The notes under the pieces are model-generated. The model was not told the DNA's origin. It saw only the letters and a program-made list of their open reading frames with translations, and did no database searches. Shown piece after piece: positions 15,650-19,978 of a stretch of 64,000 nucleotides of DNA. Position 1 is the stretch's first letter, and each line of letters opens with the position of its first letter. Position numbers and translations under genes: made by a program. The DNA is taken from contig CM000154.2 of assembly GCA_000004695.1 (NCBI GenBank), positions 1,536,001-1,600,000 on the forward strand, given 5' to 3'. Origin of the DNA: Dictyostelium discoideum. Its lineage: Eukaryota.

Positions 15650-16802
15650 TTAATTTTGTAATGGATAAACATCATATAACTGAGAGGAGGAATCAAGTTT
15701 AGAACCTGAATAAAAGTAATAGGTATTTTGGAAAGTTGCAAAAGGCATAGAAGGAGAGCATAGTTCCTCAATATCGGAAATAAAATCTAAACCAAAAGTT
15801 ACATGATCACCATTATCAATACCAAATCTACCACTATGGTAAGGGTTTCCATCTTTATAAGCTCCATCATATGGGATCTAATTATTAAAATTGTTTTTAA
15901 TAGTTAGTAGAAAATAAAAAGGAGACACTATTGTAAAAAAAAAAAAAAAAAAAAAAAATACTTACCCAACCAATTGATTGATGATAAAATTCACATTTAA
16001 CGTGAGGTTGAGTATCTTTAATAGCAATTTTACTTCCTCTACCATATAAAAGACGAACTGGAATATTATTATATCTTAAAATACTTGAAAAGAACCAAGA
16101 ATGAACACCACAATCACCATGTCCAAATTTAAAAGCCTCAGTTGGTGTACCATCATGACTATATGGATTTTGATATTTCAAATTCTTATAAATAAACAAT
16201 GAAACTCTATATGCAAATTCTAGTATACCTTCAATATCTCCACCATCATTATGAGGGTATAATCTGTTAGCTTCAATGAATTGTTGAAATTCTGGTGTAT
16301 TAAAATTAATCTTTGTTGTAGGTCTTAAATAAACTTCAATCTCTTTATCTGTAATTGGTTCAACTTCAATTATTTCATTTGGATCTTTAACTTCGGTTAA
16401 ATGAACTTTATAAAGATCTACATCAACTCTATACTTTGCTATTGTAGACTTTATATTATGCACACTTTCAAATTTATGACTAACCCTATAAATATCGTTA
16501 TGTGATGACCCAATAATTTCAGAGTCTACCAACAATTCATCATTACCACCATTATGAAGTGTAAATGATGAATATCTAACTTGTTGATTATTAATTGATG
16601 GTGGTACTGATAAGTATTGTTTTGTCCAAGAAAGCTCTAAATAAAAAAAAAATTAAAAAAAAATTAATATTGAATAATTCTCATCATATAAAATACCATA
16701 AAAATAACATACTTGTATTTGAATAGGTCATAACATTTTGATATACAGCAGTAACTGAATTGTTATATATTTTTGAAAGTTTAAATCTTTTATTTCCCCA
16801 TA
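15650..16802 (-). CDS. Transglutaminase-like domain protein, cassette A, complement(join(15650..15877,15966..16636,16713..16802)). May be the 3' half of one long gene continuing into cassette B.
   Basis: TGase-like core GDCGVHSWFFSSILRYNNIPVRLLYGR followed by a His motif (TQPHVKCEFYHQSIGW). Donors GTAAGT (15965) and GTATGT (16712); acceptors TAG at 15878 and 16637. Last exon translates IPYDGAYKDGNPYHSGRFGIDNGDHVTFGLDFISDIEEL...YPLQN with stop at 15650..15652. The exon-by-exon structure parallels cassette B. Confidence 0.6.
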
Positions 16803-16817
16803 CTAAATAATTTAAAT

Positions 16818-19800
16818 TTATATTAATATTAATTGTAAGTAGTAAAAATAATTAAAAAAAAAAAAAAAAAAAAAAGGATAATTATTATAATTACTTTTTT
16901 TATGAAGTGCATAGTCATTAATTAGTTGATCAACATGTGGGTTTCTTGGAATTCCTAGATTAGATTTAAAATCATAAGGTGCTGAGGAAGATGATTGAGT
17001 TGATGATGTTGTTTGTGGGTTTTGAATCATTTTTGAAAGTGAATTTGCAAAACCTCTAAAAGGGTTACTTTGTTGTTTTTGTGATTGTTGTGGTTGAGTT
17101 TGTGGTTGTGGTTGTGGTTGAGGTTGAGGTTGTATTTGTGGTTGTTTCATCATTGGTCTTATTGGTTGTTGAATTGGTTTTGGTGTTTGTGTTTGTGTTG
17201 AAGATAATGATGGTGATTTTTTTAATAATTTAACATCATATTCATGGGTAAAGAGTAAACGTTCAGGATAAGGACCAGTCTTATAATAATTACCAAAGCC
17301 TACAAGTTGGAAAACAGTGAAAGCATTTGAAAAATCTTTTATATCTGAAATGAAATCCATACCATAGGTGATGAAATGACCTTGATCTTTACCAAATAAA
17401 TAATCACAATAACCATTTTTTGATTTACTAGTGGCTTCAATTGGTACCCAACCTATTGAAGAAATGTAGATTTCAGGTTTAACATGAGTTTGAGCATCAC
17501 CAGGTTTATCTAATTCTGCATTTCTACCAAACAATATTCTCGTTGGTACATTTGAATAACGCATAATTGATGCGAAAAATATTGAATGACAACTACAATC
17601 ACCATATTTTGCCTTAAAAGTTTCAATTGGTTTACCACTTAGGCCATGTGGGTACTTGTAATCTAAATTCTCTGTCATCCATAAAAGAATTCTATAGGCA
17701 AAACATAAAACACTCTCCATTGTACCATCATCAAATGTTTTTGGATAAAATCCATTCTCTTCTACAAATTCAGCAAATTCTTGTGTATTGAAATCCAAAC
17801 GATCAGTTGGTCTCAAATAAATCTTAATTTCATTATCTGTAATTGGTTCAACCTCTACAACTTCATTTGGATCTTTAACTTCAACTAATCCAACCTTGTA
17901 TAAATCCACTTCAAGAATCTCTTTAAAAACATAATGAGTTTTATATGGATTTTCTGGTGAAAGATAATTAAAATACCATATCTTTTGATGTGATGAATCT
18001 GTTAATTCTGGTTCAATCAATTCAATATTACTATCTCCATCATAAAGTTTCATTGTTGCACTTCTTATTATTTGATTATTAATTGATTCTGGTTTTGGCA
18101 TCCAAACTTTTACATTTGATAATGCTATTTTTTTAAAAATTATTATTATTATTAATTATTATTATTATTAATATTATTATTATTATTATTATTATTATTA
18201 TTATTATTATTATTATTATAAAATACTTACTGCACTCTGGTTTATATTTAATAACAACTTTATATTCAGCAGTAACTGAATAGTTATAGGTTTTAACTAA
18301 TTTAAATTTTTTATCCCATACTAATAGAAATATAAAAATGAAATGGTATTAGTTAAATTATTCCTGATTGAATTTATAATAATAATAATAATAATAATAA
18401 TAATAATAATAATAATAATAATAATAATAATAATAATAATAATAATAATAATAATAATAATAATAATAATAATAATGATTATAAATGATAGTTACATAAT
18501 TTATGAATTTGATGATCATTTATTAATTTACCTAATGGAGGTGCTGTTGTTGGTAAAGTGTTATTAGATTTATAAATACTTTCATCAGTTCTTTTAAAAG
18601 GACTAAATGCATTTAATTTAGAAACTGATGTTGCTGGTTGAATTGGTTGAGTAGGTTTGGATAGTGCATTTGGATTAATTGGTCTTGGTGGTGGTGCATT
18701 AACTGTTTGCTTCAAAGTGGTTGGTATTGGTTGTGCAGGAATTGGTTGTGAAGTCTGTGGCTGTGGTTGTGGTTGTGGTTGTGGCTGTGGTGGTAATTTA
18801 AATGTCTGAGATGCTGGTCTTTTAGATAATGGTACAGTTGTTGGAGTTGGTGTTGAAGTTGTTGCTGAAGCTGTTGTTGGGGTTGAATTTACAGAAACAG
18901 GTTTGAGCTTAAATGGGAATGTGGCTGGTTTTTGTGGTTGTTCTTGTTGTGGTTGTTGTGGTTGTTGTTGTTGTTGTTGTTGAATTGGTTGTGGTGGTAA
19001 TTTAAATGTTTGAGAAGGTGGTCTTTTAGAAAATGGTACTACTGGTGGTGTATTTGTTGTTGTAGTTGAATTTAATTGTGGTAGAGGAGCAGGTCTTAAG
19101 GGAGTAGTTGAAGTTGTTGGTGCTGTAGTTGAGTTTGATTGTGGTAGAGGTGCAGGTCTTAATTGTTGTGATGAATTTAAATTATTTGTTGGTTGTTGTT
19201 GTTGTTGTTGTTGTTGTTGTTGTTGTTGTTGTTGTTGTTGTTGTTGTTGTTGTAATGGTGGTAATTTAAATCCTTGAGATGGGGGTCTCTTTGAAAATGG
19301 ATTTGTTGGTGATGTTGTTGCTGCTGCTGCTATTGGTGATGTTGGTTTTTGTTGATTACTATTACTATTATTATTATTATTTATAAAATCATTATTTGGT
19401 AATAAATCAGAAACTGGACTTATATAATTTATTTGATTTTGAAGTAATATTGAAGAATTTGATAAAATTTGATCAAATAAATGAAATAAACTATTGAATG
19501 ATAATTGAATATTAATTAATGGTATATCTAAATCTGAAACTTTCCTATCAAAACATTGTTTAACATTTGTGAATAATTTCGATTTTAAATCAATGTATTC
19601 ATTCTTTTTATTTGAATCTGCAGATGTTAAAAGTAATGATTGTAAATCGTCAATCACTTTAATTTTATTATTACAATCTTTAATATGCAAACAGAAACTT
19701 GAAATTACTTTAAAGTTTTCAGCTTGATTTAACTCCCAATCTGTGTAACCATTTTGAACTAAATCCAATACATCTTTTGAATATTGAGATAATGGATGTT

Positions 19801-19978
19801 GTAAATCGTAATATCTCTTCAAATTATTACAAATACTATCTGGTGATAAATATAACTCCTTTATGTAGCCACAATATGATTTTAACGATATTTCAATCGA
19901 TGTTGAACTATCTGATAATTGCTTAAATTCTTTTTTTAAAATATCATAATTTTTATCTATGGTTTTTATGTGTGTTGA
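16818..19978 (-). CDS. Transglutaminase-like domain protein, cassette B, with a long N-terminal exon carrying a Gln/Pro-rich repeat region. Exons: 16895 (or stop at 16818)..18124, 18231..18320, 18532..19978. The 5' end lies further upstream and is unresolved.
   Basis: The TGase-like core GDCSCHSIFFASIMRYSNVPTRILFGR and His motif AQTHVKPEIYISSIGWVPIEAT are paralogous to cassette A. The N-terminal exon (acceptor TTTTAG at 19979/19980) encodes a novel domain, a polyQ tract, and three copies of the PFSKRPPSQ(G/T)FKLPP motif. Its donor G|GTAAAT at 18531 (phase 1) joins the 90-nt exon 18231..18320 (acceptor TTAG, donor A|GTAAGT). That exon in turn joins the exon beginning 18124 (acceptor AATAG), all phases consistent. 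Confidence 0.55.
18370..18478. repeat. (ATA/AAT)n trinucleotide microsatellite, ~36 units, in an intron of cassette B. A second (TTA)n array sits at 18147..18225.
   Basis: Perfect trinucleotide arrays are visible in the sequence. They account for the spurious poly-Ile ORF 18343..18567. Confidence 0.9.

Follow-up and report, generated by a model that had tools for sequence, protein, structure and literature searches.

A probable single seven-exon gene with two tandem transglutaminase-like units in Dictyostelium discoideum

The described proteins closest to the gene examined here come from bacteria, fungi and animals. Bacterial transglutaminase-like putative cysteine proteases of Pfam PF01841, such as 3ISR of Cytophaga hutchinsonii, are single-module proteins of ~290-350 amino acids (aa), and 3ISR itself is without demonstrated activity. 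In fungi, Cyk3 combines an SH3 domain with a transglutaminase-like (TGase-like) domain and is linked to cytokinesis together with the F-BAR protein Hof1. The catalytic Cys is missing from fungal Cyk3, and in yeast an artificial fusion of the transglutaminase (TG) domain to Hof1 can supply TG-domain function (PMC4758748). Also considered are the animal transglutaminases (TG2, TG3 and factor XIII) and the amphiphysin/BIN/Rvs N-BAR proteins. Here, we analyzed a stretch of 64,000 nucleotides (nt) of Dictyostelium discoideum DNA (GenBank assembly GCA_000004695.1, contig CM000154.2, positions 1,536,001 to 1,600,000; hereafter the window), which is ~24% G+C and has poly(A/T) intergenic DNA and short GTAAGT...TAG introns. 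The subject is a minus-strand locus at 15650-19978, which encodes two paralogous TGase-like units arranged head to tail, with unit B upstream of unit A.

We consider 20087-15650 on the minus strand to be a single seven-exon gene with a product of ~1267 aa, a reading to which we assign a probability of roughly 0.87. The first-pass annotation, made from the letters of the window alone, had favoured one gene over two and had described all splice phases as compatible. When the gene was reconstructed from the DNA, the six exons within 19978-15650 joined in frame without an internal stop to give a coding sequence of 3792 nt (1263 aa) that was open throughout, with canonical GT...AG splice sites at every junction, and the single-gene reading was supported by every comparative test run. 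The features of the gene, all on the minus strand, are as follows (here and below, a slash marks a splice boundary).

20076..20087, minus strand: exon 1, a 12-nt mini-exon encoding MISN, located by aligning the window to the AX2-like assembly (L003/L005) and to the wild isolate (L001)
19979..20075, minus strand: intron 0, 97 nt, 96.9% A+T, GTAAAT...TTTTAG
18496..19978, minus strand: exon 2, N-terminal domain, P/Q/T-rich linker and first part of unit B (LGKLINDHQIHKL)
19385..19978, minus strand: N-terminal helical domain of ~198 aa, from phmmer and profile searches
19193..19252, minus strand: polyglutamine (polyQ) tract, (CAA)20, read from the sequence
18788..19300, minus strand: span with PFSKRPPSQxFKLPP-type repeats, and also two LRPAPLPQ repeats
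18321..18495, minus strand: intron 1, 175 nt, phase 1, with an (ATT)n microsatellite inside
18231..18320, minus strand: exon 3, 90 nt, part of unit B, (L)WDKKFKLVKTYNYSVTAEYKVVIKYKPEC
18125..18230, minus strand: intron 2, 106 nt, phase 1
16895..18124, minus strand: exon 4, body of unit B, linker 2 and first part of unit A (VDQLINDYALHKK from 16934)
16803..16894, minus strand: intron 3, the unit-B-to-unit-A junction, 92 nt, phase 1, GTAATT...TTATTTAG, 92.4% A+T
16713..16802, minus strand: exon 5, 90 nt, part of unit A, (I)WGNKRFKLSKIYNNSVTAVYQNVMTYSNT
16637..16712, minus strand: intron 4, 76 nt, phase 1, homologous in position and phase to intron 2
15966..16636, minus strand: exon 6, beta-sandwich and most of the core of unit A, including the Cys and His positions
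15878..15965, minus strand: intron 5, 88 nt, phase 0, with no counterpart in unit B
15650..15877, minus strand: exon 7, end of unit A, with the stop codon TAA at 15652-15650

Exon 2 ends in phase 1 (T/GTAACT), as does exon 4 (A/GTAATT), in which the body of unit B (beta-sandwich and TGase-like core) occupies 18122-17217. The product thus begins with MISN and continues with a BAR-like domain of ~200 aa, a linker of ~290 aa, unit B, a linker of ~95 aa and unit A. The longer linker is Pro/Gln/Thr-rich, disordered and bears short basic proline-rich repeats. The expected polyQ tract proved to be a run of 20 residues, and the three expected PFSKRPPSQxFKLPP-type repeats were located at 19300-19256, 19036-18992 and 18832-18788 (PFSKRPPSQGFKLPP, PFSKRPPSQTFKLPP and PLSKRPASQTFKLPP). 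In a wild isolate that is ~3% diverged from the window, the repeats are retained (P0001), the polyQ tract is 12 codons shorter and exon 3 is identical; the repeats are not obvious in Dictyostelium purpureum. Long microsatellites of the (ATT)n/(TAA)n type at 18377-18478 (intron 1) and 18140-18215 (intron 2) differ in length between the strains, the wild isolate having 69 nt and 24 nt less, respectively. The protein has no hydrophobic N-terminal segment and is therefore probably cytosolic. An alternative donor for exon 2 at 18531 (G/GTAAAT, phase 1) was rejected, as the conserved GKLINDHQIHKL motif would be lost and the wild-isolate annotation uses 18495. AATAAA signals are uninformative at such A+T richness; one of them represents the codons AAT AAA within exon 16802-16713.

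That the two units are paralogues, as first proposed, was borne out by pairwise alignment (46% identity over 320 aa, E-value 3e-93) and by Pfam. Both match PF01841 Transglut_core well above the gathering cut-off of 23, with scores of 53.7 bits for unit B (E-value 2.9e-14) and 54.5 bits for unit A (E-value 1.6e-14). Relatives of unit B were searched with its single-exon part as the query, and all 83 sequences in the resulting alignment (A3) match Transglut_core; this alignment replaced an AlphaFold prediction of unit B from the single sequence (predicted local distance difference test score, 33). An NCBIfam scan of both units and the N-terminal domain gave no match, and the family relatives retrieved are all annotated as 'hypothetical'. 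With regard to layout, the succession of a 90-nt exon, an intron and a large exon with the core holds for each unit, and in each unit a phase-1 intron lies on either side of the 90-nt exon, at columns that are homologous in the alignment. The repeat unit, however, begins not at the 90-nt exon but in the preceding exon, ~13-45 codons 5' of it (unit B, GKLINDHQIHKL/; unit A, DQLINDYALHKK/). Nor is the duplication the clean copying of an exon triplet that had been suggested: unit A bears the extra phase-0 intron 15965-15878, and unit B is without it.

The evidence that joins the two units is concentrated at 16894/16803. The junction had been placed correctly to the base, with CAT AAA AAA A/GTAATT (donor G at 16894) and TTATTTAG/TA TGG (exon start at 16802); the splice is phase 1 on both sides and leaves the full coding sequence open. 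A conserved motif, (V/L)DQLINDxxxHK(x) followed by (L/I)W(D/G)xK(R/K)(F/Y)KL, straddles this site in the same way that it straddles the first intron of unit B. In D. purpureum DNA the motif is uninterrupted in units 1 and 2 (LINDHEYHKHLWDNKRYKL and LVDHHEYHKFFWDNKRYKL), and in the single-unit paralogue P0003 it is likewise contiguous (LLNDYTIHQQLWDYNYFKL). Because the motif is continuous elsewhere, the sequence just 5' of the 92-nt spacer belongs, and must be joined, to unit A. D. purpureum has a phase-1 intron between its units 2 and 3 at the same position as intron 3 (HKK T/GTAAGT...TTTCAG/TATGGGAT), and its units 1 and 2 are linked by one uninterrupted open reading frame (ORF). Intron 3 also resembles an intron in its composition and divergence: (i) its A+T content (92.4%) lies within the range of the other introns (85-97%), with the exons at 67-77%; and (ii) its substitutions relative to the wild isolate amount to 6.7%, whereas the large exons have 2.5-3.7% and the exons as a whole 0-3.7%. 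The wild isolate keeps the GT/AG and the motif at the junction, and all 12 of the exon indels between the strains are multiples of 3, including those in the inter-unit linker. Together, these observations suggest that intron 3 is spliced in vivo. It is already known from public gene predictions for other assemblies that the locus can be modeled as one gene: in independent annotations, single proteins of 1267 aa and 1247 aa (ACTFIW_012424) are called in GCA_054883475.1 and GCA_054859355.1, respectively, and a partial protein of 1254 aa (DICPUDRAFT_36609) is called in D. purpureum. The two former assemblies, both of the D. discoideum lineage, are probably from the AX2-214/wild-isolate project (PMC12745789).

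Unit A was examined for a start codon of its own, which the first-pass annotation had found wanting, and no usable in-frame ATG was found. The ATG within AG/TATGGGG is out of frame and meets a TAA after three codons, and the sole in-frame Met of the first unit A exon sits within the conserved region. Unit A is nonetheless under purifying selection, with a ratio of nonsynonymous to synonymous substitution (dN/dS) of 0.29 between the window and the wild isolate, yet it is not translatable alone. The corresponding ratios were 0.46 for unit B and 0.08 for the N-terminal domain, the most constrained part of the protein.

The lack of a start codon extends beyond unit A. The gene had been placed within 15650-19978, which holds for its six larger exons; the whole gene, however, is without an ATG there, and the mini-exon lies outside, at 20087-20076. 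Exon 19978-18496 is directly 3' of an acceptor AG and has no Met in its 494 codons. In the AX2-like assembly and the wild isolate, the start is provided by a 12-nt exon, ATG ATA TCA AAT/GTAAAT (MISN), with which the gene calls in L001 and L005 begin. The D. purpureum gene starts with ATG ATA TCT AAT/GTGTGT (L002 5881-5892), and comparison of the three sequences identifies the MISN mini-exon as the conserved start. The window reads TTG ATT TCA AAT/GTAAAT at 20087-20076 and is thus without a start codon. Other ATG first exons were sought in 20679-19979, where the only candidates, at 20647, would need introns of ~660 nt and lie beside the start of the divergent neighbour; they were judged implausible. 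A conserved island (ATGATTCCTA.A.TTTATTCCTGAAAAG.TAGGA) lies on the minus strand at 20250-20290, upstream of the mini-exon by ~170-210 nt. The wild isolate shares this island, within poly(T) of poor conservation; it is non-coding, since it has an in-frame TGA, and may be a promoter or 5' untranslated region element.

The N-terminal domain had been called novel, a description that stands only in that its single sequences match no Pfam family; as a profile, it matches the BAR domains of amphiphysin and BIN proteins. Searches by phmmer detected the domain in P0003, P0006, P0008, P0011, P0005, P0007 and P0014, and it is common to single-unit paralogues across the Dictyostelia. When a profile of the domain from eight family members (A4) was searched against the PDB by hmmsearch, matches were obtained to amphiphysin (9bqx_A, E-value 6.2e-5) and BIN1 (2fic, E-value 0.0097), and more weakly to further amphiphysin and BIN2 chains in the same register (E-values 0.3-1.1). 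The comparison with BAR by hhalign gave a probability of 49% (E-value 1.8e-4), and with single sequences Pfam BAR was seen for one member only, at an E-value of 0.19. These profile matches argue for a divergent BAR domain as the probable identity of the N-terminal domain. Protein searches with the N-terminal domain and with the unit alignment returned no homologues, though P0001 contains both, and these negatives are thus unusable.

Each unit is predicted to consist of a beta-sandwich and a TGase-like core with a thiol triad, and the core has a papain-like alpha/beta fold in the predicted structure. Unit A has the Cys-His-Asp triad, formed by Cys (GDCGVHS, TGT 16112-16110), His (QPHVK, CAC 16004-16002) and Asp (GWIPYD, GAT 15868-15866). 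The active-site positions of unit B (17436..17597) are Cys (TGT 17597-17595), His (CAT 17486-17484) and Glu (GAA 17438-17436), with the Glu (GWVPIEAT) replacing the Asp found in unit A, in all D. purpureum units and in the wider family. This substitution is conservative and is shared by unit B of the wild isolate. Across alignment A3 the Cys and His (C176 and H213) are invariant, and the consensus at the third position is GWVPVD.

Several of these observations weigh against the single-gene reading or its functional extension. The three one-gene calls are predictions, and the model from the Joint Genome Institute (JGI) is partly wrong; the sole indel in intron 3 between strains is 3 nt, and so does not discriminate intron from coding sequence; and the window holds no ATG for the gene. 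Were intron 3 retained, the reading frame would stop at 16820-16818 after 27 codons, so that an isoform with unit B only is possible. Unit B has Glu in place of the triad Asp together with the higher dN/dS, and its constraint may be relaxing since the duplication. The BAR similarity is modest (hmmsearch E-value 6e-5, hhalign 49%), and enzymatic activity is known for no member of the family. If the locus were instead two genes, with gene B ending and being polyadenylated at the TAA at 16820-16818 and unit A having its own promoter and 5' exon, the in-frame stop in the spacer and the usual family architecture of N-terminal domain plus one unit would both be accounted for. Against such a division, unit A has no usable ATG, 92 nt is too short for a promoter, and the spacer is intron-like in composition. 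In addition, the conserved LINDxxxHKK motif of unit A sits 5' of the spacer in frame with unit B, the intron position and phase are shared with D. purpureum, whose two other units lie in one ORF, and unit A is under purifying selection. We therefore regard two separate genes as highly improbable. A scan of 16600-17100 for bacterial-type promoters and terminators found nothing above shuffled sequence, a scan irrelevant for a eukaryote. A second possibility keeps one gene and gives it alternative products, in that skipping from the donor 18495 to the acceptor 16802 would yield the N-terminal domain with unit A, and retention of intron 3 would yield the N-terminal domain with unit B. Phase 1 is common to all four introns that flank the 90-nt exons, and these symmetric exons could let the cell make one-unit or two-unit isoforms; both one-unit forms would mimic the single-unit paralogues, which are the family norm. 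Alternative splicing is uncommon in Dictyostelium, however, and such products are compatible with a two-unit main product; as a rival account of the locus, they appear unlikely.

The missing start codon raises the question of whether the single gene is intact in the sequenced strain. The window matches chromosome record CM142511.1 (assembly GCA_054883475.1) at almost every base, and all coding exons are intact and identical to those of the AX2-like assembly. Against the AX2-like record, one difference was found in 15400-20024, a 3-nt change in the length of an A run within an intron, compared with 28 aligned substitutions and a 9-nt run-length difference in 20025-20497. The wild isolate agrees with the AX2-like record at 21 of these 28 positions, and there the window base nearly always extends a homopolymer (A or T). 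This cluster has the appearance of poor-quality sequence within a divergent promoter region of extreme A+T richness, and the TTG at the start is very probably a local sequence error in the source assembly of the window rather than a real loss of the start. A very recent pseudogene, created by a true ATG to TTG mutation at 20087 in the sequenced strain, would give the reading TTG ATT TCA AAT; no credible upstream ATG exon is available to replace it, and no AX4 protein for the locus surfaced in the word-indexed protein search, which misses true matches. The exact look-up of eight alternative gene models (including MISN plus the full product, a read-through product with unit B only, unit A from internal Met residues and the N-terminal domain only) also gave no match in the protein collection, which seems to be without some low-complexity proteins. 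The unreliability of these negative results, the intact exons, and the fact that the TTG is one of 21 window-private differences within 470 bp of intergenic DNA, nearly all of them homopolymer extensions, argue against a pseudogene. The kilobases on either side of the 470-bp cluster are identical, a pattern typical of local errors in base calling or assembly and not of mutation, and we judge a real start loss to be improbable. For annotation, the preferred model is one seven-exon gene with a 12-nt first exon, which is easily missed, as it was in the JGI model of D. purpureum; the missing start could have excluded or distorted the gene in an annotation built on the sequence of the window.

To place the duplication in time, the units were compared with those of D. 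purpureum. The orthologous gene was rebuilt from DNA at L002 5881-10926 (GL871139.1) and has seven exons, an ORF of 1531 aa and three complete units; the JGI model DICPUDRAFT_36609 is partial and mis-spliced, misses the MISN exon and removes most of unit 1. In the alignment of units from the two species, unit B of D. discoideum is 54-56% identical to D. purpureum units 1 and 2, unit A is 56% identical to unit 3, and B and A are 44% identical to each other. Because B and A are each closer to their D. purpureum counterparts than to each other, the B/A duplication predates the species split. D. purpureum units 1 and 2 are 88% identical, and their comparison points to a later, second duplication of the B-type unit in that species. 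The paired phase-1 introns at homologous positions in both units are most simply read as a segment duplicated together with its introns. In this scheme, an internal genomic segment of ~1.4 kb was duplicated in tandem to give units B and A; the segment began in the linker, 5' of the LIND motif, and included the 90-nt exon with the phase-1 intron on each side of it. Unit B would be joined to unit A when the 92-nt phase-1 intron 16894-16803 is removed. D. purpureum has lost all but one of the paired phase-1 introns and has an intron of its own at YGD/CGCHS in all three units. The other dictyostelid family members (other D. purpureum genes and those of D. citrinum, Synstelium, Acytostelium and Polysphondylium) combine the N-terminal domain with one unit; among the relatives retrieved, more than one unit was found only in orthologues of this locus, with two in the D. 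discoideum lineage and three in D. purpureum. The locus thus offers a tidy, dated case of an internal tandem domain duplication that carried introns, within an uncharacterised family that is Dictyostelia-wide.

The domain order suggests how the protein might act. A BAR-like dimer would bring the TGase-like modules (two per chain and four per dimer) to curved membranes, with a long proline-rich tether linking the BAR-like domain to the thiol-triad modules. The protein may act as a thiol acyl-transfer enzyme, whether protease, transglutaminase or deamidase, or as a binder based on a catalytic site, in either case recruited to membranes by the dimeric BAR-like domain. More speculatively, the dictyostelid family may fuse a BAR-like curvature domain, through a proline-rich disordered linker, to catalytically competent TGase-fold modules present in two to three copies at this locus, and so form a one-polypeptide counterpart of Hof1 plus Cyk3; we put this forward tentatively and hold it to be rather doubtful. 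If true, the protein would be a thiol enzyme that is targeted to membranes and takes part in cytokinesis, endocytosis or remodelling of the cortex. The BAR-like assignment gives the family a testable functional hypothesis, and the analysis has as by-products a gene model with a conserved 12-nt exon, a probable start-removing error and a mis-modelled D. purpureum orthologue.

Other features were noted in the window. A large polyketide synthase gene at 7798-15579 (+), whose orthologous calls include KS, AT, DH, MT, KR and ACP domains, converges on the TGase-like gene, with the stop codons 70 nt apart (15579 and 15650). On the other side, a 498-aa ORF at 20680-22176 (+) is divergent from the TGase-like gene, and both new assemblies include it among their gene calls; it has no Pfam match, and the exact protein is absent from a collection of 15 billion proteins, though indexed against contigs. 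The ORF at 27184-30063 (+) encodes an RNB protein identical to D. discoideum AX4 DDB_G0288469. Farther away, 53000-56200 is a G+C-richer block (up to 0.37) with strong skews and with long minus-strand ORFs that are broken by an assembly gap of 100 N at 54588-54687; it is adjoined by a tRNA-Asn(GTT) at 56073-56147 (-) and is possibly a tRNA-associated retroelement.

The locus represents ordinary biology, in which a domain of a lineage-specific, uncharacterised member of the transglutaminase-like superfamily was duplicated internally and in tandem, and current understanding is not overturned. The bacterial proteins of the 3ISR type share the PF01841 domain at 15-17% identity to the units; their single module contrasts with two modules in a eukaryotic protein of 1267 aa, which here follow a BAR-like domain and long low-complexity linkers. 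With the animal transglutaminases only the core aligns (~165 residues, 12% identity), and the dictyostelid protein is without their C-terminal beta-barrels. The N-terminal domain profile aligns with the amphiphysin/BIN/Rvs N-BAR domains over ~145-150 positions in one register, whereas its single sequences fall below Pfam BAR detection and group-4 species have a shortened region between helices 2 and 3. Paralogues with a single unit occur in dictyostelids (DICPUDRAFT_79392 and _152350 of D. purpureum, ACTFIU_009589 of D. citrinum, and those of Acytostelium, Polysphondylium and Synstelium); they share the N-terminal domain, the low-complexity linker, the LINDxxxH..LW motif and the TGase-like unit but have one unit each. 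In terms of function, the fungal Cyk3/Hof1 pair may be the nearest analogy, in that a TGase-like domain would be coupled to a membrane-curvature scaffold via proline-rich or SH3-type linkers. Unlike fungal Cyk3, both units of the D. discoideum protein keep the catalytic Cys; the BAR-like and TGase-like domains occur here in one polypeptide with no SH3 domain, and the homology shown is at the superfamily level only.

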